From Alphaproteobacteria bacterium (lineage in GTDB: Bacteria; Pseudomonadota; Alphaproteobacteria; Rs-D84), in NCBI GenBank assembly GCA_017618175.1, contig JAFZUT010000020.1:5728-69727 (forward strand): 64,000 nucleotides of DNA, written 5' to 3'. Both the position numbers and the translations under genes were made by a program. This document shows positions 1-39,037 of this stretch, piece after piece (positions within the stretch are counted from its first letter, which is position 1; every line of letters begins with the position of its first letter). The notes beneath the pieces were generated by a model. The model worked only from the letters and a program-made list of their open reading frames with translations. It had not been told where the DNA came from and did not search any database.

Positions 1-1057
1 TGCGAATCGGTTCAATATAAATCGCGACAACCACACCCAACGCAGTCCCAAATACTGCACCAATAACACCGATACTGGTCCCAGACAAAATAAATATCTT
101 CATCATCGAACGCCGCGACACACCGAACGTGCGCAATACAGCAATATCTTTGGATTTATCCTTGACCAACATAACCAACGAAGACACGATATTAAAGGCC
201 GCCACAATCACAATCAACATCAAAATCAAAAACATAACATTGGTTTCAACCTGAAGCGCACCAACAAATCCGCGATTCAAATCGCGCCAATCGCGCACCA
301 CATAACCATCCGGTAATTCCGCAATCAACGCCTCGCGAACGGCGGTTGTATCTTCGGGGTCTTTCAAGAACAAATCAATATGCGTCACCGCATCCCCAAG
401 GTTCAAGTATTTTTGGGCCGTTTCCAATGGCATAAATATATAACCCGAATCGTATTCATACATTCCCATAAAGAATGAAGTCATAACCGGGTAAGACATG
501 ATACGCGGCATGGTTCCAAACGCGGTCGGTGTTGCACCATTTGCCGATACCAAAGACACCGTGTCACCCATATGTACATTCAAATTGCGTGTAAGTGATG
601 CACCCGCAACCAATTCCCCGTCACGAATTTGATTTAATGCCTTGCCATACATACGCGTGCCGGTCACCGTTTTCGCCGCCAAATCAGTCATTCGAATCCC
701 GCGCACCATCGCACCGGTATTATTCCCATCATGTGTCACCATAACCTGGCCTTCGGCGATTGGAACAATAGAAGATACCGCACGTGCAACCGTTTTACTG
801 TCCCGCATTTTATCAATCAAAAAATCATAATCTGCGATTGCACCATCTTGGTGATAAACAACGACATGGCCGTTCATCCCGACAATTCGCGACAACAACG
901 TATCATGAAAACCGCCCATAACAGACATAACCACAATCAGCGTTGCAACGCCCAACATTATCCCAATCAGTGATACCCACGACACCACAGAACCAAACCC
1001 ACGCCGCCGCGCGCCCAGGTACCGAAATGCAATTTTTCTTTCTAACTTTGTGAACAT
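1..1057 (-). CDS. lolC: Lipoprotein-release ABC transporter permease, LolC/LolE (FtsX) family; C-terminus lies beyond the window start
   Basis: Minus-strand translation from the ATG at 1055-1057 gives MFTKLERKIAFRYLGARRRGFGSVVSWVSLIGIMLGVATLIVVMSVMGGFHDTLL..., with a second membrane segment near the window edge (LILMLIVIVAAFNIVSSLVMLVKDK). This is the usual LolCE/MacB-type N-terminus and periplasmic-domain layout. It is absent from the ORF track because it runs off the window. Confidence 0.8.
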   Translation of the reverse strand, partial: MFTKLERKIAFRYLGARRRGFGSVVSWVSLIGIMLGVATLIVVMSVMGGFHDTLLSRIVGMNGHVVVYHQDGAIADYDFLIDKMRDSKTVARAVSSIVPIAEGQVMVTHDGNNTGAMVRGIRMTDLAAKTVTGTRMYGKALNQIRDGELVAGASLTRNLNVHMGDTVSLVSANGATPTAFGTMPRIMSYPVMTSFFMGMYEYDSGYIFMPLETAQKYLNLGDAVTHIDLFLKDPEDTTAVREALIAELPDGYVVRDWRDLNRGFVGALQVETNVMFLILMLIVIVAAFNIVSSLVMLVKDKSKDIAVLRTFGVSRRSMMKIFILSGTSIGVIGAVFGTALGVVVAIYIEPIR

Positions 1058-1083
1058 AATGTTCCCTATTCTATCATTCAATT

Positions 1084-2409
1084 TTAATCACGCAAGAAAT
1101 TCCGTAACGCATCACCCACCAATTGCGGTTCATCCGGGATATCCGCCGGATTCACAATTGAAACAATGCGTGGTGACATAAACACAACCAGTTCTGCAAA
1201 CGGACTTATCAATGTTTCCGGTGTCGTCACAAACGAATGCGTTGGAATACCAATGATGACATAGTTATCACCGATGCTGGACGGTATGGTGAACGAAGAT
1301 AATTCGCCCTTGCCGGTCCGCAGGACAATTTTCGCATCAATTTTTTGACGACCCGCAAAATCCCCATATTTAGCAGTCGCCCCAACAATCAAATCCGTCT
1401 CTATACGGTCTTCCTTGCTGCATTGGCCAATATCAAAACGCGATTGCCAACCATCCGGCACAACAAAATGGCCCTGGGATATAAGGACAACATTGGCCTG
1501 GCGCGATAAAAATTCTTGCAAAGTTTTTGTGTTCACTTCTGGCCCAACAACCAACGCACGCCCAACGACACCCGGCACAGACATTTTGATATTTTTTTCA
1601 CCAAACGCCGGCAACATATTCATCCAAACAATCGGGTTATCGGTGCGCGGATAAACACGATACACATCCATATCCCACGCCAACACATATTTTTTAGACG
1701 CAATATCCGCGATTATACGCGCAACCTCGCGCTCGGTTTGGTAATTTCCTTCGAACACAACGGTTTTATCGGCCCAATCTACAATAAGGTTTCTTACATC
1801 CGCGCCGTGCATTGCATCCAACAACGCCATAATTATATCTTGTTCCGCCGGCATTTTTATCAACCATTTGGCCCGATTCGAAAGTTTAATTTCACCACCT
1901 GCGGCATCATACGAATAATACATACGTCCAAGTCTTGCAATCAAATCAACCGTATCCGCCAAGTTCCCCGATGCAACCGACCCCGATACTTTTTCATATC
2001 CCGGTTCTTCTTCTACAACGGCGATATCAACACCCTCTAACAATTTATTCAATGCGTTTGCAACAGTCTGTTTTCTAAAATCATAATCCGACACATTTAA
2101 TTCCGGTAAATCGTCACCCCGGTCAAGTCGCACCATTTCAATCTTTTCATCCGGTACAACGGACACCACCGATTGATTATCCCAATTCACTGTGCATCGG
2201 CGTGGCAACTCAATCGAAAACCGCCGCGCAGTATCGGTCGTCAACGCCGCCTTTTTTGGGAAAATTGGCACAGAATTATCATCTATGACCAAATTATCAA
2301 TAACCTGGACTGTGTCATAATATACTTTTTCGTCACGCGCATCATCGCGCATACACGCCCCCAACAAAATACACACAGACATTAAAACAAAATTCGTAAT
2401 TCTTTTCAT
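1084..2409 (-). CDS. Secretin-family outer-membrane lipoprotein (type IVb pilus / T2SS secretin-like, PilN/BfpB/TcpC style)
   Basis: 441 aa with a lipoprotein signal (MKRITNFVLMSVCILLGAC). The C-terminus resembles the secretin signature (..NYVIIGIPTHSFVTTPETLISPFAELVVFMSPRIV, compare GDIPxLGxLF...ELLVFITPRIV). The family assignment is from motif memory only. Confidence 0.45.
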   Translation of the reverse strand: MKRITNFVLMSVCILLGACMRDDARDEKVYYDTVQVIDNLVIDDNSVPIFPKKAALTTDTARRFSIELPRRCTVNWDNQSVVSVVPDEKIEMVRLDRGDDLPELNVSDYDFRKQTVANALNKLLEGVDIAVVEEEPGYEKVSGSVASGNLADTVDLIARLGRMYYSYDAAGGEIKLSNRAKWLIKMPAEQDIIMALLDAMHGADVRNLIVDWADKTVVFEGNYQTEREVARIIADIASKKYVLAWDMDVYRVYPRTDNPIVWMNMLPAFGEKNIKMSVPGVVGRALVVGPEVNTKTLQEFLSRQANVVLISQGHFVVPDGWQSRFDIGQCSKEDRIETDLIVGATAKYGDFAGRQKIDAKIVLRTGKGELSSFTIPSSIGDNYVIIGIPTHSFVTTPETLISPFAELVVFMSPRIVSIVNPADIPDEPQLVGDALRNFLRD

Positions 2410-2423
2410 TTGCCTACCCCGGG

Positions 2424-2795
2424 TTATATGTTCATCACCTTTTCAAATTCTTCCAACGTCATTTCATATATCGGTTTTTCCGAAGGTGTCGTCAAATCGC
2501 GCACATGTTCGAACTGGGCACGAAAACGTTCCAACACCGCAGCAACATCCGGCGACACATTCTTAGATGATTTTACCAAACGTTCACCATATTCTACAAC
2601 AAATTCTAACACGTCCGCCGCAAAAAAACGTCCAACATAATTTTCAATTGGAATTCCGCCCTTATTAACGCAGATTGCAGACATAGTTTTTGCAGTTTGA
2701 TTATAAAAATTTGCCAATTTAATAAAATTTTGAACTGTTATCGCCATCTTTTCCCCCGATACATTTTTATACATTATAAAAACTATTGCCACCAA
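2424..2795 (-). CDS. hypothetical protein (start may be the internal Met MAITVQNF)
   Basis: 123-aa ORF with no recognised motifs, in the gap between the secretin-like gene and a divergent lipoprotein gene. Confidence 0.3.
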   Translation of the reverse strand: MVAIVFIMYKNVSGEKMAITVQNFIKLANFYNQTAKTMSAICVNKGGIPIENYVGRFFAADVLEFVVEYGERLVKSSKNVSPDVAAVLERFRAQFEHVRDLTTPSEKPIYEMTLEEFEKVMNI

Positions 2796-3946: not shown

Positions 3947-5734
3947 ATGAATATGTTGGATTCATCTTTTCTGTGTTTGGACATTGGGTCATGCGGTGTC
4001 CGCGGCATGGCATATCGCATTCGTAATGCAGAAATAGACAAAAGCGCATATTATTCCATAGATGATTTTGATACGGTGTTTGCATTAAAATCTGTGATTG
4101 ATGAATTAGAACGTCAAATTGGCACACACTTTGGTTCGGCATACATAACGGGGAACTTTGGACCATCTTATTTCAAGATGACCGCCAAAAACACAACTTG
4201 GCCAAACGACCATAAAATAACCGCGGCCGACATAAAATCTCAAATTGCCGAAATTGATGCGCCTGATGGATTTTATCCAATGCATATAATTCCATTGCGA
4301 TATGATACACCAAAAATCCGTAATATGTTATCGCCAATTGGGCACAGTGACCGACAATTAGTATCCGCGTTTTCCGCATTATTTTTTGACAATGAATATA
4401 TGCAAAAAATACAAACACTTTTGCGCCACGCCCATATTCAATCAACCGCGTTCTATACGCCGCATTTCTTGGGAAATTCCGTTTATCGTGAAAAAAAACA
4501 AACAATTATGTTTATCGATTTCGGTGCAGAAAATACGACCGTGTCCATATGGACCGACCGCGGACCGGTTTGGTATAATGGTCGCGCAATTGCCGGGAAT
4601 GATTTAACAACTGAAATATCAACCCGGCTTGACATACCTTTTGCCGAGGCCGAACGTATTAAACGCGCGGCGGCGGACCTTAAATCAAATGAAATGGCGC
4701 GTTTCAGTCCGGCAGATTCCTCATATGCTTTTTCCTGTGCAGATGTGAACGAAATTGTTGTTCCCTTCTATACCAATTTAATAGAAAGCATAAAAAATGA
4801 TGCAACCGAATATATTGAAAAATATTCACCAACACAAATTATTATCAGTGGTGGTGGTACACGCATAAACGGAATTGACGAATTAATCGCATCCACGTTC
4901 GATATACCATTTATCAAAAAAGATACAGATTGGGCGGTCCGCACATTGGGCGAATATATATGGGCATGCGAATTACCACGCCGGCGCGCATACATTGCAC
5001 GTACCCAGAAAGTACAAAATCGTATAGATAAAATACTGAAAATATTCAAACGCAAAAAGAAACAACGTCAACATCAAATACCAATTTTACCAAGTACTTT
5101 ATGTTTTGATATGACACGCCCAGAAACATATACAATGTTTCAAACCGGCGGAATTTCGGTCATACATGTTGATATTATGGATGGACTTTATGTCAATCAA
5201 ATTGCGGGTGGAATTGATGAATTGCGTCAAATTCGTGCATCTTGGGGTGGACACTTGCATGTTCACCTTATGACCGATGCACCCGCCGAATGGGCCCGCA
5301 GTGCGGTTGATGCCGGCGCAGATACGGTAATTGTTTCAACAAACACCGCCGGCCTGCGCGAAGCGGTACAAATTGTACGCGCGGCACACCGCCGTATTGG
5401 AATCGCACTGAATCCTGAATCACCGGTGTCTTTATTAAAAACAATTTTACGGGAATTAGATGAAGTTATGATTATGGGTGTCGCACCCGGTGCCGCTGGT
5501 CAAGATTTTGACCGCGATGTGCTGCATAAAATAACCGTGTTAGATGCAACACGAAAAAAATATGGATTAAAATTCACAATATCTGTGGACGGTGGCATCA
5601 ACCCGGAAACCGCCCGTTTATGTTGGGCCGCCGGCGCCGATGCATTGGTAAGCGGTTCATACCTTGCATCCGCCCCTGATTTTCCATTGGCGGTTTTATC
5701 ACTGTTGCCGCCCGAAAAAACTAACGCACAATAA
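3947..5734 (+). CDS. ftsA: FtsA (actin-like cell-division ATPase) continuing in-frame into a complete ribulose-phosphate 3-epimerase (Rpe) domain
   Basis: N-terminal ~375 aa carry the FtsA motifs (LCLDIGSCGVRG, FIDFGAENTTVSIW, IIISGGGTRINGIDEL) and a basic amphipathic tail (IDKILKIFKRKKK). From about 5083 the frame encodes Rpe (ILPSTLCFD..ISVIHVDIMDGLYVNQIAGG...ISVDGGINPETA) with no intervening stop. Confidence 0.7.
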   Translation: MNMLDSSFLCLDIGSCGVRGMAYRIRNAEIDKSAYYSIDDFDTVFALKSVIDELERQIGTHFGSAYITGNFGPSYFKMTAKNTTWPNDHKITAADIKSQIAEIDAPDGFYPMHIIPLRYDTPKIRNMLSPIGHSDRQLVSAFSALFFDNEYMQKIQTLLRHAHIQSTAFYTPHFLGNSVYREKKQTIMFIDFGAENTTVSIWTDRGPVWYNGRAIAGNDLTTEISTRLDIPFAEAERIKRAAADLKSNEMARFSPADSSYAFSCADVNEIVVPFYTNLIESIKNDATEYIEKYSPTQIIISGGGTRINGIDELIASTFDIPFIKKDTDWAVRTLGEYIWACELPRRRAYIARTQKVQNRIDKILKIFKRKKKQRQHQIPILPSTLCFDMTRPETYTMFQTGGISVIHVDIMDGLYVNQIAGGIDELRQIRASWGGHLHVHLMTDAPAEWARSAVDAGADTVIVSTNTAGLREAVQIVRAAHRRIGIALNPESPVSLLKTILRELDEVMIMGVAPGAAGQDFDRDVLHKITVLDATRKKYGLKFTISVDGGINPETARLCWAAGADALVSGSYLASAPDFPLAVLSLLPPEKTNAQ

Positions 5735-21232: not shown

Positions 21233-21805
21233 ATGAAGTTTAAGTTATTGTATTTTGGCGAAATTTTAATAAACCCAAAGAAACGGGCCCAACATATATC
21301 CGACATCCGTATGCAATTTCACCCGCAATTAAAGAAATTGGTCGAACACCAACCGTGGGACAAATTGACTCAGTATATGGCGCCGAACCCGGCCAAAAGC
21401 CCAATTATCACCCGTCATGTTGGCGGCATAGATTGGAACCCGATTATTACACCAAAATTAAAATTGATTGCGGAATTAGACATCCAAATGTTGCACCCAG
21501 AAATTATCGGCGTACCGCGTTCAGATATTGACAACCGCATTAAAACATTGTTTGACGGCCTGCGTTGCCCACAAAACGAACACGAAATTGGTCAAAATGT
21601 TCCACGTGATGCGGGCCCGATATACACACTTTTAGATGACGACCATTTGATAACCAAGATTTCTGTTAACACAAGCCACTTGTTATCAACACATATGTTT
21701 CACCCAGATTTGGTCACATCCAGTCCCGATTGCGTATTTATGATGATTGACGTGAACCTGCGTGTCGCCGAAGGAACATTAGAAAACCTGCCGTTTATGG
21801 TGTAG
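21233..21805 (+). CDS. hypothetical protein
   Basis: 190-aa ORF with an AGAGG RBS and an ATG start. It is followed by the intrinsic terminator at 21875-21897. No motifs were recognised. Confidence 0.35.
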   Translation: MKFKLLYFGEILINPKKRAQHISDIRMQFHPQLKKLVEHQPWDKLTQYMAPNPAKSPIITRHVGGIDWNPIITPKLKLIAELDIQMLHPEIIGVPRSDIDNRIKTLFDGLRCPQNEHEIGQNVPRDAGPIYTLLDDDHLITKISVNTSHLLSTHMFHPDLVTSSPDCVFMMIDVNLRVAEGTLENLPFMV

Positions 21806-21912: not shown

Positions 21913-22983
21913 CTACGACAAAAATGCTGTAATCTGATCTTGCATCTGGAATGTCCCCAATACTATCCACGCAATGACACCCGATATCAATAAAATCCCG
22001 ATTGTATTTAGTGTTTCTGATACAGATTCTATTTTTTTGACAGAATTTTCCAAATAGTCATTTGAAATCTGGGTCAAGTTTTCATCAAAATCGTTCATAT
22101 CGGCATAAATTGTCAAATCGCCAATAAGTTCATTGTTTGGAAAATCCATCCCCGTATTCTGTAAAGCATTTCCAAGGTTGTCACCATTTGCGATATAATG
22201 CAATGTTTCTTCTAAAATACGCCGCAGATACCTGTTTGAATTATCCGCCAACATTCGCATTGCGTCCGGAATCGTCACACCCGCGGCCACCATCGCAGAA
22301 AGTGACATCATCCAACTGACCGAAAGACGAATTTTATATATGTTCCACGGGGGCAAAGCGTCCAAAATCACACGTATACGCCCAGAAAACCGCGGTAAAG
22401 ACCACCATATCAAAAACATCATTGCCACAAACACTATCGAAAAAGCCTGCCAATACTTGCCGGCCAAATTGGACAACCATATAAGTGATGCCGCCCCACC
22501 GGACCAAACCATGCCTTCGCCGGCAACCGCGGACAAAGGCGGCACCAAATAAAGCCCGACCATAATTATAATTGCAAAAACCAAAACCAATAATAATGTT
22601 GGATATGCAATGGCACTGAACACCGCGCCACCTATTCTTTTATTTGCGACAATTATGCGACCAACATTTTCCAACGCGACAATCAAACTGGACATATTCC
22701 CGGATGTAAGCAACAGGGTTTCTTCGGCCGGAACCCAACCACGTGTGGCCTCGGAAAAACTAAGACCGCGTTCAAGGTTTTTTTCCCATTCACGCATACA
22801 TATTGCAAACGGTTCGTTCGGTTTTGCACCACCATGCGATTCTATCATTTGCAACCGGTTCAATGCATTTACCAAAGTGAAATCATTTTTCAGCAATGAA
22901 ACCAATTTACGCCAAATCGATATCCGTTTGTCATTACTAAAACGGCAAACCATTTTGGCGTAAAATATTTCAAGTCTGTTCAT
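21913..22983 (-). CDS. GspF/PilC-family inner-membrane platform protein (type IV pilus / T2SS)
   Basis: Polytopic protein with GspF-domain features (RYLRRILEETLHYIANGDNLGNALQNTGMDFPNNELIGDL). The internal ATG at 22981-22983 sits 1 nt after the ATPase stop; the ORF track extends to 23043. Confidence 0.6.
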   Translation of the reverse strand: MNRLEIFYAKMVCRFSNDKRISIWRKLVSLLKNDFTLVNALNRLQMIESHGGAKPNEPFAICMREWEKNLERGLSFSEATRGWVPAEETLLLTSGNMSSLIVALENVGRIIVANKRIGGAVFSAIAYPTLLLVLVFAIIIMVGLYLVPPLSAVAGEGMVWSGGAASLIWLSNLAGKYWQAFSIVFVAMMFLIWWSLPRFSGRIRVILDALPPWNIYKIRLSVSWMMSLSAMVAAGVTIPDAMRMLADNSNRYLRRILEETLHYIANGDNLGNALQNTGMDFPNNELIGDLTIYADMNDFDENLTQISNDYLENSVKKIESVSETLNTIGILLISGVIAWIVLGTFQMQDQITAFLS

Positions 22984-22984
22984 A

Positions 22985-24622
22985 TCAATAAACCCCCGGT
23001 CTGTCCAGAAGTCCAACCCAGCGTTCCAACTCATCAACACCAATTATACCCTGCAACATCAAAGAACACGCAGATTCTTTTAATGTGCGGCCATCCATTT
23101 CTTCCAACCAATATTTGACGGCTGCATCGGTATTACCGGCCAACGCCAATTGTAAAAATTCACTGTTGGTTATTATGATTTCACCGGCCTTGATACGTCC
23201 CAATGTACCGGTTCCATTGCACGCATCACAACCCGGACCACGGACATATACCTGATTTAATCCCAAATCACCAAAAGTATCCATCACACGGGCATATTCC
23301 GGATATTCCGGATGATTCTTTAATTTTTCGCGACAATGCGGACACAGTCTTTTGAACAAACGCATAGAAACCAAACCACGCATCATTGTTTCTTCTTTTA
23401 ACTTGAACGCTTCGACCCCCATATCTAATAACCTGACCAAAGCCGCCATCGCAGAATTCGCGTGCAATGTTGTCCACACATTATGCCCCGACAACGCACC
23501 CTTAACCGTCAATTGCGCGGCGGCCAAAGTTCTTATTTCACCAACCATCAATGTATCGGGGTCGCTTCGCAATGCGGCGGCCAACGCCTCGGTATATTCA
23601 GCCTCGCGCTGTTCTTCACTTGCGGTATTTACAACCGGAATTTGATGCGCACCAAAAATCTTTTGTTCAACCGGGTCTTCCACTGTTATAAGATTGATTT
23701 CATAATTATGCTCTTTTAACATCAACACCATATTGCGAACCAACGTTGTTGATTTACCAGAACTGGTTGGGCCGGCAACAACAACCAAACCCGTTGGATA
23801 CGAACGCAGACGCCGCAAAAGTATTTGTTCATATTTTCCAAATTCTTGTTCCGTTGTTATATTTTCCGAAGGATTATCATACAACAACCGCATAACCACA
23901 TACCGCGAACCAAATGCGATTGGATTAAATTGCATTCTTATACTTAGCACCCCTTGCGGCAGATACAAATCTTTGGTTCCACGCAATGGTGTACGCCCGT
24001 CTTTCTGGGCCGATTGATATTCGTTTTGGGCATAGTTCGCATTCGAAATATCGGCCGATGCAAACGCAGCACGAACAAAAGATTCGCCCCACCCCGAATT
24101 AAATTCCAGAACCGGTTGCATACTGCCGTCTATACGAAAATATATTGTTGTTTGGTCTGCAACTTCGATATGAATATCTGAAACCTTTTGAGCGGCGGCC
24201 TTGGCAATAATATCAACAAAATCCTTTTGCATTTGGTTGTTAAAATCGACACGCGAACGATTTCCATCACCCAAAGTATTTTCATAATATTTATATATTG
24301 CAGACACCAAACCTAAATCAGAATAAAACGGTATACGCATAGGACGATTTTTCTTGCGCAACAAATCCATAAACGCAATTACACGCCCATCATACCGATG
24401 TGTACGTGAAATAATAAGACATCCGCCCGAAAAGTACGCCAATAAACCCTGGGTTTCTTTTGGCAATTCAAATTCTGCGCCCGGTGCCGTCAACAGGTGA
24501 TTATCTTCGGTAAACAGGTATTCAATTATCTCTTTATTATCCGCGTGTTCCAATCCCGCCGGCACAGACGGTTTTTGGGAATCAGGCGTTTTTTCTAAAA
24601 CATTCTTGTCATCGTTTTTCAT
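22985..24622 (-). CDS. GspE/PilB-family secretion/pilus-assembly ATPase (type IVb/T2SS type with tetracysteine zinc motif)
   Basis: Walker A VVVAGPTSSGKSTTL, Asp and His boxes, and CPHCREK...GPGCDACNGTG (the tetracysteine arrangement typical of GspE/BfpD/TcpT-class ATPases), all in a 545-aa protein. Confidence 0.8.
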   Translation of the reverse strand: MKNDDKNVLEKTPDSQKPSVPAGLEHADNKEIIEYLFTEDNHLLTAPGAEFELPKETQGLLAYFSGGCLIISRTHRYDGRVIAFMDLLRKKNRPMRIPFYSDLGLVSAIYKYYENTLGDGNRSRVDFNNQMQKDFVDIIAKAAAQKVSDIHIEVADQTTIYFRIDGSMQPVLEFNSGWGESFVRAAFASADISNANYAQNEYQSAQKDGRTPLRGTKDLYLPQGVLSIRMQFNPIAFGSRYVVMRLLYDNPSENITTEQEFGKYEQILLRRLRSYPTGLVVVAGPTSSGKSTTLVRNMVLMLKEHNYEINLITVEDPVEQKIFGAHQIPVVNTASEEQREAEYTEALAAALRSDPDTLMVGEIRTLAAAQLTVKGALSGHNVWTTLHANSAMAALVRLLDMGVEAFKLKEETMMRGLVSMRLFKRLCPHCREKLKNHPEYPEYARVMDTFGDLGLNQVYVRGPGCDACNGTGTLGRIKAGEIIITNSEFLQLALAGNTDAAVKYWLEEMDGRTLKESACSLMLQGIIGVDELERWVGLLDRPGVY

Positions 24623-24636
24623 CTGTTATGCCAAAA

Positions 24637-25341
24637 CTAATTTTTATTACCAACATTTAATGTTTGAATTTCACCGTCTTTGATAAACACGACACCTTCG
24701 TCCAACGATATAGACTTAACAGTATAACCATCCAATTGTTTTCCAACACTAAGACGTTTGTTTTGCCCATTGGATAAATCCTGAACGGTCGCCTGTAATT
24801 GTGCGCCGGCACCGAACACATTCAACAGTTTGTAATTTTTCTCGATTTCGACATCTTTTGGTGCCTCGGCCACAAACGATTGTTGTTTTTGCGGTTGATT
24901 TTGCGCATCTTGTTGTTTATTAACCATAGATTCTTTTTCCAATTCCAAACGTTTTGCTTCGGCCTCTAAACGCGCACGTTCCGTTTCAAATTCTTGTTGT
25001 TGTTGTTCTGCGCGTCCCGACAGCGTATCGATTTCCATATGCAATTTGATTTTTTCTGCGGCCAAGCGGTCCAAATCCAGATTCAATTGCGCGCGTTCTT
25101 TTTCCAATTGCATCAAAACTTTTTCTTGTTCCAAATCTGTGATTTGTTGAAACAACGAACCTTCAACTTGGTAATCTTCGATTGCGTCCGCAGAAAATTC
25201 TTCATTTGCCGCAATATCATTTGAATTTACTTCTTCGATAACATCAACAACATTCTCAAAGACCGTGTCTGCACAATATCCGGATGTCACACCGAACAAA
25301 AAACAAACCGAAACAAATAACATTTTTATTTTATTTTGCAT
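24637..25341 (-). CDS. PilP/GspC HR-domain-like periplasmic protein
   Basis: Signal/anchor, a long E/Q/K-rich coiled coil, and a C-terminal beta domain (YKLLNVFGAGAQLQATVQDLSNGQNKRLSVGKQLDGYTVKSISLDEGVVFIKDGEIQTLNV) that follows the PilP pattern. Confidence 0.45.
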   Translation of the reverse strand: MQNKIKMLFVSVCFLFGVTSGYCADTVFENVVDVIEEVNSNDIAANEEFSADAIEDYQVEGSLFQQITDLEQEKVLMQLEKERAQLNLDLDRLAAEKIKLHMEIDTLSGRAEQQQQEFETERARLEAEAKRLELEKESMVNKQQDAQNQPQKQQSFVAEAPKDVEIEKNYKLLNVFGAGAQLQATVQDLSNGQNKRLSVGKQLDGYTVKSISLDEGVVFIKDGEIQTLNVGNKN

Positions 25342-26593
25342 AGATTATCACCTCATAGTTCCATGTTTTTCTGGCCACGTTCCACGCCGCCTTGGTCATA
25401 TATACGCCGCCAAAATCTTCAAAAATCAACATAAACTGGGACGGTATCAATTTAGATTCCACCGCAACTTCGACAACGTATACCTCTGCCGATTGGGTTT
25501 CATTCGAAACCGCATCAACGACAACTGTTATATTTGGGTCCAAGTTTATTGCCTGGAAACGACTGGTCAATTCGCGAACAATTGAATCCGGGTCACGAAC
25601 ATCTTGCGATGACACCGCGATACGTTCGGGCAATTTCGCACGCGCCAAAATTTCGTTATCATTTATTTCCTGAACGAATATACCGGGCATAACATTTGCG
25701 GCAACCGAATAAAAATCATCTAATGTTCCAAAAGAACGTTTGAATGTTGCAAACGCGTGTGTTTCGCCACATTCGGCAACCGTTTGATTCCACCCGGCCA
25801 CCTGTTGCATCAAAAATCCAATTGCACGATAACACAAATCTGCACGCTCGGCCGGTTCCGGCAAAGATTCGTACGGCATTACCAACGGTTCAATCGGCGC
25901 AGGTTGACGCATATTAAATTCTTTATCCAGTTCTTTATTTTTTTCTTCTATTTGCCGATGATATTCGGCGGCCAATTCAGGATTTTGACGCGCCATCTGC
26001 GGCTTTGGCGAAAACATTTCGTTTATCGGTTCACGGAAAATATATAAAAACACGAAAACGAACAATGCAAAAATTGCCAACGACATAAGACCCGCACCAA
26101 AGTGACTTATCGAACGCAAAACGCCATGCGAAGGACCAAAAATCAAATCCGTTAAATCACGTTCCACCGTACGTGGCATTCCCCAAGAAGCCGGCGCAAA
26201 CAACGCATTCCAATCAGGTATTTCGGCTAATTCAGCATATTTTTCACGGGCCGCCGATTCAGAATCGAAAATCAAATCATAAATTATCACACCATTTCTA
26301 ACGGCAACCAAAACAAATTTATTATCAACCATAAACACGCACAGCATTGACGCATAACCGGGTAATGCCTCTACTATCTCGACTGCGATGGACGGCATAC
26401 CCGAACGTTGACCGTTCACACGTGCGCCCAAACCAACCATACCATTATAAGAAATATATTGATTTAACCTGCGGTCTATTCCGCGCGCCAATTTATACGC
26501 ATACGCGCGTGGTGTAAACCCCGCAACCAACGGTTGCCAAAGCAAGCCCGCCGCATACTTTTTTCTTTTAATATGTACGTATTGTCCCGACAA
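25331..26593 (-). CDS. Bitopic pilus/secretion assembly protein (BfpC/PilO-R64/GspL-like topology)
   Basis: 420 aa. A ~170-aa cytoplasmic domain, one TM (LMSLAIFALFVFVFLYIF), and a ~230-aa periplasmic domain. It overlaps the next gene by 11 nt. The start is TTG with a GAGAGAG RBS. Family assignment rests on topology and synteny only. Confidence 0.35.
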   Translation of the reverse strand: MSGQYVHIKRKKYAAGLLWQPLVAGFTPRAYAYKLARGIDRRLNQYISYNGMVGLGARVNGQRSGMPSIAVEIVEALPGYASMLCVFMVDNKFVLVAVRNGVIIYDLIFDSESAAREKYAELAEIPDWNALFAPASWGMPRTVERDLTDLIFGPSHGVLRSISHFGAGLMSLAIFALFVFVFLYIFREPINEMFSPKPQMARQNPELAAEYHRQIEEKNKELDKEFNMRQPAPIEPLVMPYESLPEPAERADLCYRAIGFLMQQVAGWNQTVAECGETHAFATFKRSFGTLDDFYSVAANVMPGIFVQEINDNEILARAKLPERIAVSSQDVRDPDSIVRELTSRFQAINLDPNITVVVDAVSNETQSAEVYVVEVAVESKLIPSQFMLIFEDFGGVYMTKAAWNVARKTWNYEVIIYAK

Positions 26594-26599
26594 AATCTC

Positions 26600-26630
26600 T
26601 CTCTTGCACTACCTGTGATAGATTATAACA
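26600..26630 (-). promoter_or_regulatory. Putative promoter of the four-gene pilus-like operon (-10 TATAAT at 26623-26628 on the minus strand)
   Basis: The minus strand reads ..GGAATTAAATATTGTTTTTATGTTATAATCTATCACAGG.. about 30 nt upstream of the TTG start. Confidence 0.3.
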
Positions 26631-26655
26631 TAAAAACAATATTTAATTCCAGTGT

Positions 26656-26684
26656 AAAAAACCGTTATTTTCATAACGGTTTTT
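26656..26684 (-). terminator. Palindromic terminator AAAAACCGTTATTTTCATAACGGTTTTT (bidirectional; terminates the lipoprotein gene)
   Basis: An 8-bp stem flanked by an A-run and a T-run. Confidence 0.45.
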
Positions 26685-26704
26685 GATTTTTTTGTTTTTT
26701 TATT

Positions 26705-27139
26705 TTATTGGAAACATTTGCCGTCATTCACACCATTAAATGTGACACCACGACACGGTTTTATTTCATATTCCGGCATCGCCGAATCAGACCGTGCGGT
26801 CCGCACCGTTCTTGGGTTTGGACAATCATAAACATTTGCCGCCAAAACGAACGCGCGTTCCGGTCCAAAAATCACCCATTCATTTGGACGTGTTCTTTGA
26901 CTAACAATCCAATACGCATTACCGGGGCGTGCCTGGTCTGCTATACGGTTTTCCAAATACCGCCGTGCATCATCTTGGTCATAAACCGAAACTTCTGATT
27001 CTAATTTATAAAGGAAAGTGCACCCAATCGGTTCACCATCCAATTGTTTAATATACTCACTGCCGTTTTCATTTTTGATATATCCGCCACATCCCCAAAG
27101 TACAATCGCAGACAAAACCATAATTAAATATTTTTTCAT
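26705..27139 (-). CDS. Small lipoprotein (possible pilotin-like accessory protein)
   Basis: MKKYLIMVLSAIVLWGCGG lipobox, 144 aa, immediately upstream of the pilus-like operon. No motifs were recognised. Confidence 0.4.
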   Translation of the reverse strand: MKKYLIMVLSAIVLWGCGGYIKNENGSEYIKQLDGEPIGCTFLYKLESEVSVYDQDDARRYLENRIADQARPGNAYWIVSQRTRPNEWVIFGPERAFVLAANVYDCPNPRTVRTARSDSAMPEYEIKPCRGVTFNGVNDGKCFQ

Positions 27140-29860: not shown

Positions 29861-30652
29861 TTAATGCCCCGATGGAATGTAAACATTTTCTATTAAATGT
29901 AAATGTGATATACGATTCCAAACATCAGAAAAATTGCCACTTGTCCAACCTGACGAACCATTAACTTGAACAACTAAATATTTAATACTATTATCTGTAA
30001 CCTTGAAAATATATTCTGGATATGTTTGTGAATTTGAAATTACATCCGCCCCACGCACACCATTTGACTTGTATGCCTCAATTTTTTTATTTGTTTTGGT
30101 TGGAACATTGTTTGTTTTAACAAAAAAAACTCGATAAATAGAAGAATCCCCCCCACTGTCCCAATACAGTTTATATTCAACATTTGGTTTTATTGGTATC
30201 CTGATACTGGCCGAAGCATCCTCATAATAACTCCAAACTTTTTCATTTGAATAATAATATGCCCTAAACCATTCACCATCACCCGGTTGAATACCCACAT
30301 CGGCACCCTGAATCCGTGTCAATAAACAATTGCCATTTCCATCTTCTTCTACACACTCAAACTCGCTGTCTATTGCATTTTGAACGGCGGTATTCATTGT
30401 TTGTGCATCAATCAATGCGTCACTTTGCCCCGCATACGAACCAGTCGAGTCATAAATATTCTTGGTGCCAATCTCGCCCGCAGTGCCGGTATTGGTTAAA
30501 ACCTGGGCTGCGCCGTTATTCGCGGTAATTTTATCTTGCTTGGTCGCGATTTCTGCGTCTACATACGATTTAGATGTGGGAACATTTTCACCCGCGGCAA
30601 ACGCGCCATACGACAATAAAACAGAAAACAAAAATACAAAAAATCTTTTCAT
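29861..30652 (-). CDS. Secreted protein, paralog A of a two-member family
   Basis: Signal peptide MKRFFVFLFSVLLSYGAFAAG. The N-terminal domain (TSKSYVDAEIATKQDKI...TNTGTAGEIGTK...LIDAQTMNTAVQNAIDSEFECVEEDGNGNC) is shared with the adjacent gene. Confidence 0.4.
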   Translation of the reverse strand: MKRFFVFLFSVLLSYGAFAAGENVPTSKSYVDAEIATKQDKITANNGAAQVLTNTGTAGEIGTKNIYDSTGSYAGQSDALIDAQTMNTAVQNAIDSEFECVEEDGNGNCLLTRIQGADVGIQPGDGEWFRAYYYSNEKVWSYYEDASASIRIPIKPNVEYKLYWDSGGDSSIYRVFFVKTNNVPTKTNKKIEAYKSNGVRGADVISNSQTYPEYIFKVTDNSIKYLVVQVNGSSGWTSGNFSDVWNRISHLHLIENVYIPSGH

Positions 30653-30656
30653 AATC

Positions 30657-31025
30657 CTACTCTGGCATATATGTCCCAGATAATTGATTTATACTCCATA
30701 AAATACATTCACCATTTTCACTTTCGTAACATGTCACATGCGCGTTCAAACCGTTCTGAATCGCGCTGTTGGCGTGGTTTGCCTCTATCAAAGAATTTGT
30801 TTGTGAACTGTACGCGGTGGTTGTTTTATAGACCCCTTTGGCACCAACCGTCCCGGCCGCCCCAGTATTTGTAATAACGGTATCTGCGGTACCACCACCA
30901 ATTTTATTTTGTTTCTGGCCAACTTCATAATCAACATAGGACTTTGATGTAACGGTATTATCCGCCGTTGCAAACGCACATACTGGGGCTATCAGCAAAA
31001 TAAATGCTATAAATTTGTATTTCAT
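30657..31025 (-). CDS. Secreted protein, paralog B (short form)
   Basis: Signal peptide MKYKFIAFILLIAPVCAFATA. The region TSKSYVDYEVGQKQNKI...TNTGAAGTVGAK...LIEANHANSAIQNGLNAHVTCYESENGEC aligns with paralog A. Confidence 0.4.
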   Translation of the reverse strand: MKYKFIAFILLIAPVCAFATADNTVTSKSYVDYEVGQKQNKIGGGTADTVITNTGAAGTVGAKGVYKTTTAYSSQTNSLIEANHANSAIQNGLNAHVTCYESENGECILWSINQLSGTYMPE

Positions 31026-32318: not shown

Positions 32319-33392
32319 ATGCAGGTATTAAAACGGATAATTTTTGCCGTTGTTTTTGCTATTGGAATTTTATTCCGTACGTCTGTTTATGCCGAAGACC
32401 AAAATAATTTTGAAGTTAAATTTACATTTACCGCCAGTGTGTCCAGGGCAAATCAATCAACAACATATTTTAAAATCAGTGCCCAAGGAACATTTTTTGT
32501 TGATTGGGGTGATGGAAATAAACAAACAATAACTCGAACAAATACAACCCAGGCAAGTTATTCACATACCTATACCAGCACAGGTACAAAAACAATAAAA
32601 CTTGGTGGACTTGCCACAGGATACAGCACAGCAAGTGAAGAAGCCAACGCCGCGATAAGTTTTGCGGATATAACCGTACTAACAGGAATATCCGGTTCAA
32701 TTGGACGAATCTTTCCAACCTTGGCAAACGGTTCACAACCATTATTTCGTGCGACATTTGCCGAATGTACTAATTTAGCAGGTTCAATTCCCCCAGAATT
32801 ATTTCAGGATGTTTATGGGGCGCCCCGTGAACATATGTTCCGCAGCCTTTTTTACAAAGATACAAAATTAACCGGTTCTATACCCGGTGAATTATTCAGC
32901 AGTATAAGGGGTGATCAAAAAACATCTTTATTCCAAGGAACATTTTATAATTGTTCTGGATTATCTTCGTTTATTCCACCTGAATTATTTGCGGGTATAA
33001 ACAAAACACCAACTGTTAGCAGTGCATTTTCAAATGTTTTTAACGGTTCTGGTTTGGTAACTTCGTGTCCAAGCGGTTACAAAAAATACACAACCGGTTT
33101 TGAAAGCAGTTTTAACAATAAAGTTTCATGTGAACCAAACGTGACTTGTTCCAGTGGATATGCAAGATATGGTTCTACATGTTATAGAATCTGTTCATTT
33201 GGTTCAAAATTTATGGTATCAACCGGTCTTAGTTTTGATGTATTTGGTGAACTTGAACCATCGGGTAATCCATCAATACACATAAAACTTGGTAACCAAG
33301 AATGTTATGTGTTTTCAAAACCCGGGGCATCAAATGGATTTAATTTCAAACATACCGATGGACAAACATATCATCTTGTTGGTGCGAATTGA
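32319..33392 (+). CDS. Secreted repeat protein with BspA-type leucine-rich-repeat-like units
   Basis: Signal peptide, then three repeats of F..C.nL.GSIPpELF (FAECTNLAGSIPPELFQDV / FYKDTKLTGSIPGELFSSI / FYNCSGLSSFIPPELFAGI), and a Cys-rich C-terminus. Confidence 0.4.
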   Translation: MQVLKRIIFAVVFAIGILFRTSVYAEDQNNFEVKFTFTASVSRANQSTTYFKISAQGTFFVDWGDGNKQTITRTNTTQASYSHTYTSTGTKTIKLGGLATGYSTASEEANAAISFADITVLTGISGSIGRIFPTLANGSQPLFRATFAECTNLAGSIPPELFQDVYGAPREHMFRSLFYKDTKLTGSIPGELFSSIRGDQKTSLFQGTFYNCSGLSSFIPPELFAGINKTPTVSSAFSNVFNGSGLVTSCPSGYKKYTTGFESSFNNKVSCEPNVTCSSGYARYGSTCYRICSFGSKFMVSTGLSFDVFGELEPSGNPSIHIKLGNQECYVFSKPGASNGFNFKHTDGQTYHLVGAN

Positions 33393-35698: not shown

Positions 35699-36004
35699 AT
35701 GAAACAGCAGGTGCTGAAAGCTTTGGCGAATCCGTCGCATTTGTTTTATGTGCCATATACTTTGGCGGTGCTGAATTTTATGGTGCAATTTATTGTTTTT
35801 ACTATTTTATATATAATTGGAATATTTATTTTGAAAATAGATAAAGTTAATACTTATCTAAATCCTTTATATTTTTTAGCATCGGTTATAATTGTTCATA
35901 TGATTTTGGCTACTTTTTCAAAACGGGATGCACAACTGGGGCAAATTTTGGTGGCAAAAATAAAAATGTTCAAAAATAAAATTCCACGGAGATTGCCTGC
36001 ATGA
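35699..36004 (+). CDS. virB3: Type IV secretion system protein VirB3
   Basis: 101 aa with the VirB3-like LANPSHLFYVPYTLAVLNFMVQFIVFTILYIIGIF segment. It overlaps virB4 by ATGA. Confidence 0.65.
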   Translation: MKQQVLKALANPSHLFYVPYTLAVLNFMVQFIVFTILYIIGIFILKIDKVNTYLNPLYFLASVIIVHMILATFSKRDAQLGQILVAKIKMFKNKIPRRLPA

Positions 36005-38418
36005 TGAATAATTTTTTTGAATTTTTTGCCGGTGGTGGAATTTCCAATAACATGACTTTAACAGTTATGGTGGTGGCTGTTATTTTTATGTTTATTATAC
36101 TAATGATATTTATTCCAACAATTATTAAACATATATTTCCAAAGTTTGGATATAAACATTATGCGGAATATATACCATTTCAAACGGTTTATACAGATAA
36201 TTCGATTGAATTAGATGATGGTTGTTTGGTTCGTGTTTATTCGGTTGCCGGTGTTCAAACCAGTATGCAAACCGAAGAAAATCGTGCAAAATTCTTGGAC
36301 CTGCGTGCACAATTGTTTAATCAAATACATGATCCGAATGTTGTTATGCGATTTTTCACAATTCGTGATGCGGCGGGCGAAAATACAAATTACGAATTTG
36401 ATCAACCGGTTTTGCAAAAAATATATGATAAATGGCATTCCCAAGGATTAAAAATTTTCCTTAATAATTATTATATAGTTTTGTCTGTGCGCGGTGTATC
36501 TGCACGTGATAAATTAAATCAGTATGGAAATTATATTGAATCTATACTTGCACCATATAAACCAAAGGTATTAAAGAATAATTCGCGTGATAATATGGCA
36601 CGGTTTTTTGGTCGTATATTTTCACCAATTACTAAACCGGCACCCGCCGTTTGTGATGATAAAATCAAAGAATTATCGACTGTTGATGATGTTGAATTTC
36701 TACGTAATGGAAATGTTAAATATATAAGTGGTAGTCGTGAATATTATGCTGCACTTATTTCTTTCCGTGGTGCACCAGATTATTTAGATGAAGACTTTTT
36801 TGATTCTGTGAATACTATTCAAACAGAAATGATTTGTATGAATGGATTTAAAATTATGGATGCCGCCGCGGTCGAGGCCACATTACGTCAGCGCCGTAGT
36901 GCCGCCGACAAAGAACACGATACAACCGAAGAACAAATTTCCAGTGCAGAATCTGTAATGGATGAAAATGTATCTGGAAATCAAACATTGGTTAATTATT
37001 ATCCTTTGTTTGTTTTGTTTGGTAAAACACAGGAAGAATTAACAGAATATGTTGACGAATTTAAGAAGATATCCGCATCTTTTGGTGTGTCACCAATTCA
37101 AGAAAATTTTGCATCAAAAGTTTCTTGGTTCTCTATGATACCTGGGTTTGATACATTCCCACGAACCTTTAAAATGTTATCACGTGCTGCGGCTATATCT
37201 ATACCAATGTCTACAACTCCACGCGGTGTTACAAATTCTGATTGGGGTCCGGGACCATTGGTTGTATTCCCAACTGCCCAGGGTACACCATATCAATTCC
37301 AATTCCATGTTTCTGACAAACCTGCGGCGGTTGCACATACTTTAACAATTGGTCCAACCGGAGGTGGTAAAACAACATTATTCTCTTTTCTTATTGCACA
37401 ATCATTGCGGCATAAAAAATTAAAAGCATTTTTCTTTGACCGTAACAAAGGTGCCGAAATATTCACTCTTGCGGTTGGTGGCAAATACGTGACCATGCAG
37501 GGTAAAGAGAAAAATGAAACAGAATTTTTAACACACCTTAATCCATTAAAAATGCCGGATACGGTTGCGAACCGGGCATTTTTGCGCCGTTGGTTTGCGA
37601 TGATATCCGAACAAAACGATGCGTTATCCGCGGACGAGATTGCACGTGCGGTATCTGTGAATTTTGATTATTTGTCTGATAAAGACCGTATGTTAAAAAA
37701 TCTTTATGAAAGTTGTTTTTCATCCAGTGGGAAAATGCGTGCCGCATTAAAAAAATGGGTTGATCCATTACAATATGGTGAAATATTTAATGAAAATAGT
37801 GACACATTAGATTTACAATCGCGTTTAACAACATTTGATTTTACCGATATTTTACAAGACGCAACATTGGCGCCCGCGGTTATATCATATATATTACACA
37901 GAATAAATAATACGACCGTATCTGGTGGAAACCCATCATTAATTATGATTGATGAAACCGCACCTATGTTAGAAAACAAAATGTTCCGTGATAATTTTAT
38001 TGCCGGCCTGCAAGAAGGAAGAAAAAATCGCCAGGCATATATGGTCGCGTTCCAACGCGCAAATGTTTTGGATAAATTGGGTATTGGTGATGTTGTCCGT
38101 GGCCAGGCACAAACGATTATGTTCTTCCGTAATCCTGCGGCGGATGCGGCGGATTATGAACATTGGAATTTGAATCCGTTAGAAATGGCGTTTATCCAAG
38201 GCAAGGCATATCCTAATCTAAAACGTGCGGTGTTATTATCGCGCCCGGTGAATAATGAATCTGTAATTTTGAATACGGAACTTGGTGGGCTGGGGAATCT
38301 TTTAAGATTATTTGAATCTGGTCGTTCATCGGTGTTATTGGCCGAAGAATTATATAATCAATTTGGTTCAAATTTTGTCGCAGAATACCTTAAAAAGCAA
38401 GGTGCAGGTGATTTTTAA
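36001..38418 (+). CDS. virB4: Type IV secretion system ATPase VirB4
   Basis: 805 aa. Walker A TIGPTGGGKTTLFSFL, Walker B LIMIDE, and the CagE/TrbE/VirB4 domain layout. Confidence 0.9.
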   Translation: MMNNFFEFFAGGGISNNMTLTVMVVAVIFMFIILMIFIPTIIKHIFPKFGYKHYAEYIPFQTVYTDNSIELDDGCLVRVYSVAGVQTSMQTEENRAKFLDLRAQLFNQIHDPNVVMRFFTIRDAAGENTNYEFDQPVLQKIYDKWHSQGLKIFLNNYYIVLSVRGVSARDKLNQYGNYIESILAPYKPKVLKNNSRDNMARFFGRIFSPITKPAPAVCDDKIKELSTVDDVEFLRNGNVKYISGSREYYAALISFRGAPDYLDEDFFDSVNTIQTEMICMNGFKIMDAAAVEATLRQRRSAADKEHDTTEEQISSAESVMDENVSGNQTLVNYYPLFVLFGKTQEELTEYVDEFKKISASFGVSPIQENFASKVSWFSMIPGFDTFPRTFKMLSRAAAISIPMSTTPRGVTNSDWGPGPLVVFPTAQGTPYQFQFHVSDKPAAVAHTLTIGPTGGGKTTLFSFLIAQSLRHKKLKAFFFDRNKGAEIFTLAVGGKYVTMQGKEKNETEFLTHLNPLKMPDTVANRAFLRRWFAMISEQNDALSADEIARAVSVNFDYLSDKDRMLKNLYESCFSSSGKMRAALKKWVDPLQYGEIFNENSDTLDLQSRLTTFDFTDILQDATLAPAVISYILHRINNTTVSGGNPSLIMIDETAPMLENKMFRDNFIAGLQEGRKNRQAYMVAFQRANVLDKLGIGDVVRGQAQTIMFFRNPAADAADYEHWNLNPLEMAFIQGKAYPNLKRAVLLSRPVNNESVILNTELGGLGNLLRLFESGRSSVLLAEELYNQFGSNFVAEYLKKQGAGDF

Positions 38419-38419
38419 T

Positions 38420-39037
38420 ATGTTAAAAAAATTAATTGTTTTTTTATGTATTATTTCACCATTTTCATTATTTGCGAATGATTGTGTTAAATATAAACAA
38501 ACACCAAAAATTTCAGTTTTATCGCCTTTATATTCAACCAAAGTGGTTCAACCAGATGAACCAATGGATAAATATCACGGAAATGTGGTCGCAACATTTG
38601 TTGAAGATTATGATATATCTGTTGATATTTTTTATGATACGGACGGATATTGTGTCGCATTGAAATCTGTGGACGCATTGGTTGGTTATAATGATTTTTT
38701 AATCAAGATTGATAATTCAAACATTAAAAATTCTTGTTCATATAATGCAATATTAAATCACGAATATAAACATATTGACGAATATTTATCGGTTATGAAC
38801 GATTTAGGTCCAGATGTAAAAAGTTCAATATTTAATGCGGCAAATTCTGTTATGCCTGTATTTGCCCTAACGCGCGATGATATAGATTATGTAATAGAAA
38901 AAATGAATTATGAAATGCGCGACCATCCGGAATTGATTTTAATAAAGCAAAAAATAAATGCGGCCCAAGAAATTCGCAATAAACGCATCGACCAAAATGA
39001 AGATAATCACGAATTGAAATCATGTTTAATAAATTAA
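38420..39037 (+). CDS. Exported hypothetical protein immediately downstream of virB4
   Basis: ATG 2 nt after the virB4 stop, signal peptide MLKKLIVFLCIISPFSLFA, 205 aa. It is not VirB6-like (no polytopic region). Confidence 0.4.
   Translation: MLKKLIVFLCIISPFSLFANDCVKYKQTPKISVLSPLYSTKVVQPDEPMDKYHGNVVATFVEDYDISVDIFYDTDGYCVALKSVDALVGYNDFLIKIDNSNIKNSCSYNAILNHEYKHIDEYLSVMNDLGPDVKSSIFNAANSVMPVFALTRDDIDYVIEKMNYEMRDHPELILIKQKINAAQEIRNKRIDQNEDNHELKSCLIN

Follow-up and report, generated by a model that had tools for sequence, protein, structure and literature searches.

Core components of a probable type IVb pilus assembly machine are conserved on the chromosome of Candidatus Enterousia

The stretch of DNA analysed here, 64 kb in length and referred to below as the window, comes from Candidatus Enterousia, of the order Rs-D84 in the Alphaproteobacteria. 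It carries a cluster of five genes, a lipoprotein gene followed by a four-gene operon encoding relatives of type IVb pilus assembly proteins, of the kind found in plasmid R64 and in the bundle-forming pilus (BFP). All five open reading frames (ORFs), which a first-pass annotation of the same DNA had described, were confirmed on the minus strand at the same coordinates. A sixth gene, encoding a divergent secretin, is located 23 kb from the operon and is not part of the cluster. The features are the following (aa, amino acids):

26705-27139, minus strand: lipoprotein gene (144 aa, lipobox LWGC)
26657-26684, no strand assigned: terminator-like hairpin (perfect 12 bp, read from the sequence)
26622-26630, minus strand: candidate extended -10 promoter TGTTATAAT (read from the sequence and its conservation)
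26596-26604, minus strand: purine-rich putative ribosome-binding box, between TGTTATAAT and the pilO2 TTG start
25331-26593, minus strand: pilO2 (420 aa, PF06864)
24637-25341, minus strand: pilP (234 aa, TIGR03021)
22985-24622, minus strand: BfpD/PilQ-type assembly ATPase (545 aa, T2SSE)
21913-22983, minus strand: GspF/PilC/PilR-type platform (356 aa, T2SSF)
1084-2409, minus strand: divergent BfpB-like lipoprotein secretin (441 aa, fold and transitive homology)

Genomes were scanned at one per species and 151 were found to encode a PilO2 relative; the loci of the best 80 of these 151 were then compared. All 80 are labelled "Candidatus Enterousia sp." or are alphaproteobacterial metagenome-assembled genomes (MAGs) from rumen and gut, and one is circular with a length of 958,618 bp. 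An identical ATPase was found on seven metagenome contigs. In nearly all 80 loci, the genes follow the order DUF374-lpxK-lpxC-lipoprotein-pilO-pilP-ATPase-platform-(orf190, other strand)-gyrB, and in no fewer than 75 species-level genomes the cluster sits on the chromosome with lpxC on one side and gyrB on the other. Identity to the window proteins ranges from 76 to 99% for the ATPase, from 61 to 94% for the platform, and from 52 to 97% for both PilP and PilO2. The ORFs are intact and near-constant in length in 75-80 species. Ratios of non-synonymous to synonymous substitution rates (dN/dS), computed against seven close relatives, are 0.008-0.054 for the ATPase and 0.03-0.14 for PilO2, PilP and the platform; those of the lipoprotein gene are 0.03-0.15. 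The cluster genes overall (0.008-0.15) are therefore about at or below the lpxC reference (0.09-0.13), indicating purifying selection.

The 420-aa protein matches the Pfam family PAP_PilO (PF06864) with 38.3 bits (gathering score 26.7) and PilO2 of plasmid pMsip01 in hhalign with a probability of 98% (E 1.6e-13). A profile of its family weakly matches crystal structures of the PilO2 N-domain (4bz0/4byz, E 0.01), and the NCBI pipeline labels some of its orthologues "type 4b pilus protein PilO2". The protein consists of a cytoplasmic N-domain, a single strong transmembrane helix (residues 168-186), and a periplasmic C-domain made of repeated alpha-beta-beta units. The AlphaFold2 (AF2) model has a predicted local distance difference test score (pLDDT) of 65, below 50 in the N-domain, and is confident for the C-domain only; the actin-like fold of the N-domain is predicted by family. 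A likeness to LAGLIDADG nucleases returned by Foldseek was disregarded, the matches being insignificant and the model poor.

The 234-aa protein directly follows PilO2, its gene overlapping pilO2, which is the place expected of an R64-type PilP. It matches the NCBIfam model TIGR03021 (pilP_fam) over residues 116-215 with 36.9 bits (cutoff 34.65); its hhalign match to the single PilP of pMsip01 is weak (E 0.0026, probability 11%). A signal peptide is followed by a coiled coil (residues ~60-130), and the C-terminus forms a PilP beta-domain. Across 9 diverse orthologues, the coiled coil does not vary. More generally, this segment (GSLFQQITDLEQEKVLMQLEKERAQL...SGRAEQQQQE) is nearly invariant although the C-domains and signal peptides have diverged between species, suggesting that it serves as a specific surface for interaction or as a spacer that measures length.

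The ATPase matches Pfam T2SSE with 221.6 bits and all of its motifs are intact: Walker A (284-291), Asp box, Walker B and His box, together with a tetracysteine motif whose CxxC pairs lie at 427-430 and 465-468. Its closest solved structure is BfpD (8dze, E 2.2e-76), matched over residues 41-530, i.e. including the N-domain; PilF and GspE (~1e-45), PilT and then DotB (1e-12) follow in the ranking against the Protein Data Bank (PDB). Among NCBIfam models, GspE scores 225 bits and PilB 196, as opposed to 55 for VirB11 and 40 for TadA. Given these scores and the BfpD match, assignment to the VirB11/TadA type was rejected.

The platform protein matches Pfam T2SSF in two stretches (85.4 bits) and is 30% identical to the platform of pMsip01 over 345 residues (E 2e-54). 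Its start is most likely the ATG at 22983, one base past the ATPase stop, giving a protein of 356 aa. The overlapping TTG at 23043, which had been proposed earlier, is not where gene callers place the start: they give a platform of 356 aa in three of the loci (L001, L003 and L005), and the length is 355-357 aa in 77 relatives.

The fifth component is less readily recognised. The 441-aa lipoprotein has no match in Pfam (to E 10), in NCBIfam (searched with 28 family members) or among PDB sequences (phmmer and profile searches). A phmmer search against 1.8 billion representative proteins returned 141 relatives, and the distant, longer ones bear Pfam Secretin, STN and, once, TcpQ domains; one distant relative is encoded directly upstream of a T2SSE-T2SSF pair. 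We modelled the protein with AF2 from 28 family members (pLDDT 85.8) and compared the model to the PDB using Foldseek. The top 25 matches are all secretin chains. BfpB in the BfpBG type IVb pilus complex ranks first (9u5s_A, E 2.4e-10, probability 1.00), ahead of PilQ, InvG and GspD. Together, the secretin domains of the distant relatives and the predicted fold indicate a genuine, very divergent secretin, in all likelihood BfpB-like and missed by standard family models. A relation to PilN is not recognisable by sequence (hhalign probability 3.7%). Identity among its 120 best relatives is 73-95%, and in a second species one contig (JAZROX010000052.1) carries both its orthologue and the pil operon, ~41 kb apart.

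The surroundings of the secretin gene are also conserved. Next after it comes lolC/E-lolD, which encodes an ATP-binding cassette transporter for lipoprotein export, in the window (1-2795, minus strand) and in the loci L091 (9663-13331) and L087 (6540-11158), and this adjacency is retained where the identity of the secretin is only 42%. Ahead of the secretin gene is a small conserved cytoplasmic ORF (107 aa from MAITVQNF), which resembles the C-terminus of a 406-aa protein encoded upstream of the secretin in the relative with 42% identity.

The remaining gene of the cluster encodes a 144-aa lipoprotein in which residues 17-107 form a conserved core and the tail is variable and rich in Cys. It has no family match in Pfam, NCBIfam or PHROGs, and it proved unrelated to the TcpQ-family protein of pMsip01. 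Its gene begins 17 nt past lpxC and occupies the gap between lpxC and the pil operon in 75 of the 80 relatives. Judging from this arrangement, the gene probably belongs to the lpx unit and is transcribed separately from the pil operon. On the other side of the cluster, orf190 (21233-21805, plus strand, 190 aa) is divergent to the platform gene and is 79-100% identical in 62 relatives. Its dN/dS of 0.008-0.038 indicates a tighter constraint than that on lpxC, and it is without a match in Pfam, NCBIfam and PHROGs; a stretch of it, DIDNRIKTLFDGL, may resemble a RusA-type motif.

Within the operon, pilO2 and pilP overlap by 11 nt, pilP and the ATPase gene are separated by 14 nt, and the ATPase and platform genes by 1 nt. 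Between the lipoprotein gene and pilO2 is the hairpin AAAAACCGTTAT-GAAA-ATAACGGTTTTT, with A and T runs on its flanks, a terminator-like element which would end the lpx-lipoprotein unit. Of 74 relatives, 73 have a hairpin with a minimum free energy of -8 kcal/mol or stronger at the corresponding place between the two genes. Downstream of it come, in order, TGTTATAAT, the purine-rich box and the pilO2 TTG start. A TA[A/T/C]AAT element is present no more than 60 nt from the pilO2 start in 73 of 74 relatives, and TG[T/G]TATAAT together with a GAGAGAGA box in all 13 sampled gaps, including those of species at only ~52% PilO identity. This conservation makes TGTTATAAT a candidate promoter for the pilO-pilP-ATPase-platform operon.

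Much of what the first-pass annotation had proposed is consistent with these results. Its family assignments (a PilO2/BfpC-type protein, PilP, a GspE/BfpD-type ATPase and a GspF-type platform) are supported by the profile searches and the BfpD match: the 420-aa and 234-aa proteins both score above the cutoffs of PF06864 and TIGR03021, and the ATPase is not of the VirB11/Tad type. The R64-like gene order it had pointed out recurs in the closest plasmid clusters, the lipoprotein gene it had set apart is separated from the operon by the hairpin, and the distant lipoprotein it had named as secretin candidate has the fold match to BfpB and relatives with secretin domains.

We compared the cluster to known systems. 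Firstly, PilO2 (PF06864) and PilP are shared with the R64-type type IVb machinery of IncI plasmids, PAPI-1, Burkholderia Tfp7, pMsip01 of Methylovorus and pBSY19_1 of Bosea, and the order pilO2-pilP-ATPase-platform (pilO-pilP-pilQ-pilR) is identical. The closest annotated clusters are those of the Bosea and Methylovorus plasmids, whose ATPases are 33-35% identical to that of Enterousia along almost the entire protein; they are organised as TcpQ-family protein, PilN secretin, PilO2, PilP, ATPase, platform, major pilin, PilT-like ATPase, PilM and PilV. The Enterousia genes, in contrast, are chromosomal, vertically inherited and situated amid housekeeping genes; the secretin is unlinked and not PilN-like by sequence; no TcpQ or PilL, major pilin, PilT-like ATPase, PilM, PilV or shufflon is found by the operon; and PilP is longer, with its invariant coiled coil. 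The role in mating that R64-type pili have on plasmids and integrative conjugative elements (ICEs) is not matched either, since the Enterousia cluster keeps its lpxC...gyrB synteny and has no mobility genes.

Secondly, the BFP of enteropathogenic E. coli provides both the closest solved relative of the ATPase (BfpD) and the best fold match of the secretin (BfpB). BfpC belongs to the PF06864 family as redefined (PMC3984277), and thus the comparison of the Enterousia cluster with bfpC-bfpU-bfpD-bfpE is a fair one. The gene order is equivalent, with only B, C, D and E equivalents in Enterousia and PilP as a putative counterpart of BfpU. Identity is low, and BfpA bundlin, BfpG, the BfpP peptidase, the BfpF retraction ATPase and the minor pilins BfpI-K were not found locally.

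Thirdly, the type II secretion system (T2SS) has in common with Enterousia a GspE-superfamily tetracysteine ATPase, a GspF-type platform, a secretin, an HR-like connector, and the logic of an envelope-spanning machine. The match is more distant, however: GspE reaches 225 bits where the equivalog cutoff is 630, GspF reaches 54 bits where it is 424, and the GspL, GspM and GspC families and pseudopilins were not detected.

Finally, as a functional analogy, the ultra-small and partner-dependent Patescibacteria (Candidate Phyla Radiation) also maintain a filament machine under strong constraint in genomes of less than 1 Mb from which most biosynthesis is gone, presumably for contact with a partner. 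Their type IV pili are type IVa-like (PilB, PilC, PilM, PilN, PilO) and operate without an outer membrane, whereas the Enterousia components are of type IVb, include a secretin and belong to a diderm.

We consider it likely that the genes described here encode the core of a working, vertically inherited type IVb pilus assembly machine, resident on the chromosome with its genes dispersed over it. Each of the five components is identified, intact, under purifying selection and conserved on the chromosome; we infer that they act as one machine, that a pilin exists, and what its filament might do. Transcription of the operon would start from a conserved extended -10 promoter of its own. A hexameric BfpD-like ATPase would dock on the predicted actin-like cytoplasmic domain of PilO2 and on the GspF-type platform, and ATP hydrolysis would turn or lift the platform so as to draw processed pilin from the inner membrane into a filament. 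With its C-terminal beta-domain and long coiled coil, PilP would form a bridge between the complex in the inner membrane and the N-terminal domain of the secretin. The filament would exit the cell through this BfpB-like secretin. The pilin or pilins, the prepilin peptidase and any retraction ATPase would most likely be encoded elsewhere on the ~0.9-1 Mb chromosome, as the secretin is. As for the role of the filament, attachment to the surface of a partner or host, or DNA uptake, appears most plausible.

Several observations weigh against this proposal, the first of which concerns the filament subunit itself. Prepilins were sought by scanning all six frames twice for class III signal peptides, the second time with a relaxed pattern. 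The pilin and PilV of pMsip01 fit the pattern by eye, and the relaxed version picked up three real examples in one of the loci examined (L088), which thus served as positive control. No prepilin-like ORF turned up in the 64 kb of the window itself, in ~10 kb to its left (taken from a close relative), in ~10 kb to its right, or, in the 80 relatives, up to 10 kb from the cluster. A peptidase A24 match is likewise absent among the ORFs of the window and the called genes of the flanking loci, and PilT-like, PilM, PilV and TcpQ/BfpG homologues were not seen by the operon. The slot after the platform gene, the usual place of the pilin in R64-type clusters, is taken here by an unrelated gene of the other strand, and there is a pilin in this slot in none of the scanned relatives. 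In addition, the PilP assignment passes its cutoff only marginally, the fold search with PilO2 yielded nothing because the model is poor, and a genome survey of Rs-D84 names type IV pili for another lineage only (PMC12306168).

In total, the search for pilin and peptidase covered ~84 kb (~9%) of a ~0.9-1 Mb genome, plus 10 kb on either side of the cluster in the 80 relatives. The earlier statement that there is neither pilin nor peptidase is therefore accurate locally, over these regions, and outruns the data as a claim about the whole genome. Among related systems, PAPI-1 and Burkholderia Tfp7 are without pilU2 and rely on a peptidase encoded elsewhere (PMC3984277).

The three prepilin-like proteins of the positive control are encoded in tandem on an alphaproteobacterial MAG of 31% G+C (L088, GCA_016735385.1; 1-3413, minus strand). 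They are distant paralogues of 434-476 aa with textbook class III signal peptides (G|NLLFE, G|GSILE and G|GMLFE), 7 kb from a homologue (P0253) of the Enterousia secretin. No homologue of the trio was found in the window or in the other loci examined, and one of the three, searched against 5.8 billion proteins, matched only itself. As a lead to an Enterousia pilin, the trio was a dead end.

How else might these genes be explained? Type IV pilus-like systems can act in secretion or DNA uptake, and the same hardware could form a T2SS-like or competence machine in which a short periplasmic pseudopilus, made of pilin-like proteins with genes elsewhere, exports proteins or imports DNA. In its favour, GspE is the top NCBIfam model for the ATPase, which has the GspE-type tetracysteine motif, and the operon has no retraction ATPase, PilV tip adhesin or major pilin gene linked to it; the organism must also import many metabolites (PMC12306168). 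The components nevertheless best match type IVb systems: BfpD at E 2e-76 as against 1e-44 for GspE, a BfpB fold, and PilO2 and PilP rather than GspL, GspM and GspC. The GspE score is far under the equivalog cutoff, and pseudopilin genes were not found either. We regard this explanation as a distinctly less likely one, and as the strongest competitor of a type IVb pilus.

A second explanation is that pilins and peptidase have been lost and that the five parts are kept for another function in the envelope. This would account for the failure to find either gene in ~84 kb or beside the cluster in 80 relatives, and for the absence of pilin from the slot that it occupies in pMsip01, in a genome that is extremely reduced. 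We know of no GspE/GspF-type machine that works without pilin-like substrates, however. Moreover, the inspected part amounts to only ~9% of the genome, one component of this dispersed system (the secretin) is already encoded 23-41 kb from the others, and the strong constraint on platform and ATPase fits canonical activity, all of which makes a pilin-independent machine unlikely. In its fullest form, with no pilin or peptidase anywhere in these ~0.9-Mb genomes and the five-part chassis doing other work, such as powering the exchange of material with a partner cell, we hold the idea to be quite improbable.

The last two explanations concern the history of the locus. The cluster could have arrived as cargo on a plasmid or an integrated conjugative element, encoding a thin pilus of the R64/PAPI-1 type used in mating and recently acquired by horizontal transfer. 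IncI plasmids and ICEs do typically carry PilO2 clusters, 2707 of 4148 plasmid records matching the ATPase are conjugative, and a virB3-virB4 pair lies 9 kb from the cluster. But the position between lpxC and gyrB is held in at least 75 species, divergence tracks that of housekeeping genes, the G+C of the cluster shows no deviation, no integrase, relaxase, shufflon or other mobility gene is present near the cluster in the window, and the nearest plasmid homologues are only 31-35% identical, leaving very little room for a recent mobile element. Equally remote is a decaying remnant of a once-complete pilus locus, as the first-pass annotation had thought possible: the local gene set is incomplete compared to R64-type clusters and the genome is reduced, but 75-80 species have intact ORFs of near-constant length, dN/dS stays at 0.008-0.15, the promoter footprint and all ATPase motifs are conserved, and pseudogenes do not accumulate in this lineage. 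Together, the intact genes, low dN/dS, synteny, G+C and lack of mobility genes contradict both decay and recent mobility.

If the genes do encode a type IVb pilus machine, as we favour, its retention in every sampled species under a constraint tighter than that on lpxC makes it a concrete candidate for contact between Enterousia and a host or partner. Rs-D84 is a widespread uncultured lineage of gut and rumen. Genomes of Enterousia and of Rs-D84 are smaller than 1 Mb and without pseudogene accumulation, and Rs-D84 is without upper glycolysis, tricarboxylic acid cycle, respiration and most biosynthesis; Enterousia are thought to be obligate symbionts or parasites, and dependence on a partner has been proposed (PMC12306168). 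The genome survey of Rs-D84 goes no further than speculating on "intercellular connections" (PMC12306168), and no description of this system was found in the literature on Enterousia and on pili of Rs-D84. The BfpD-like ATPase, the divergent BfpB-like secretin and the conserved candidate promoter provide handles for experimenters. More broadly, R64/BFP-type machinery, which is usually seen as cargo of plasmids and pathogenicity islands, may turn into a stable core function of a chromosome.

Other features of the window deserve mention. At 35699-39037 (plus strand), virB3 (101 aa, PF05101) immediately precedes a divergent virB4 (805 aa, CagE_TrbE_VirB, E 1.6e-10), and an ORF for a secreted protein of 241 aa comes next; with a G+C of 31-36%, this stretch is the lowest of the window. 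The pair fits an earlier remark on a scattered rvh-like type IV secretion system (T4SS), and the presence of T4SS genes beside the pil cluster in a reduced genome, a combination which the first-pass annotation had thought unexpected, is borne out by this pair and by the size of genomes in the lineage (below 1 Mb).

A 595-aa ORF at 3947-5734 (plus strand) combines an FtsA N-terminal region with a ribulose-phosphate 3-epimerase (residues 382-573). It is also called as a single 595-aa gene in another species (L091), and thus looks like a real fusion, not an assembly error. Two adjacent secreted paralogues of 263 and 122 aa (29861-31025, minus strand) have a common N-terminal motif, TSKSYVD...KQ.KI, and their detectable counterparts are limited to a few of the nearest relatives, which suggests a fast-evolving surface or secreted family. 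A repeat-rich secreted protein of 357 aa is encoded nearby, at 32319-33392.

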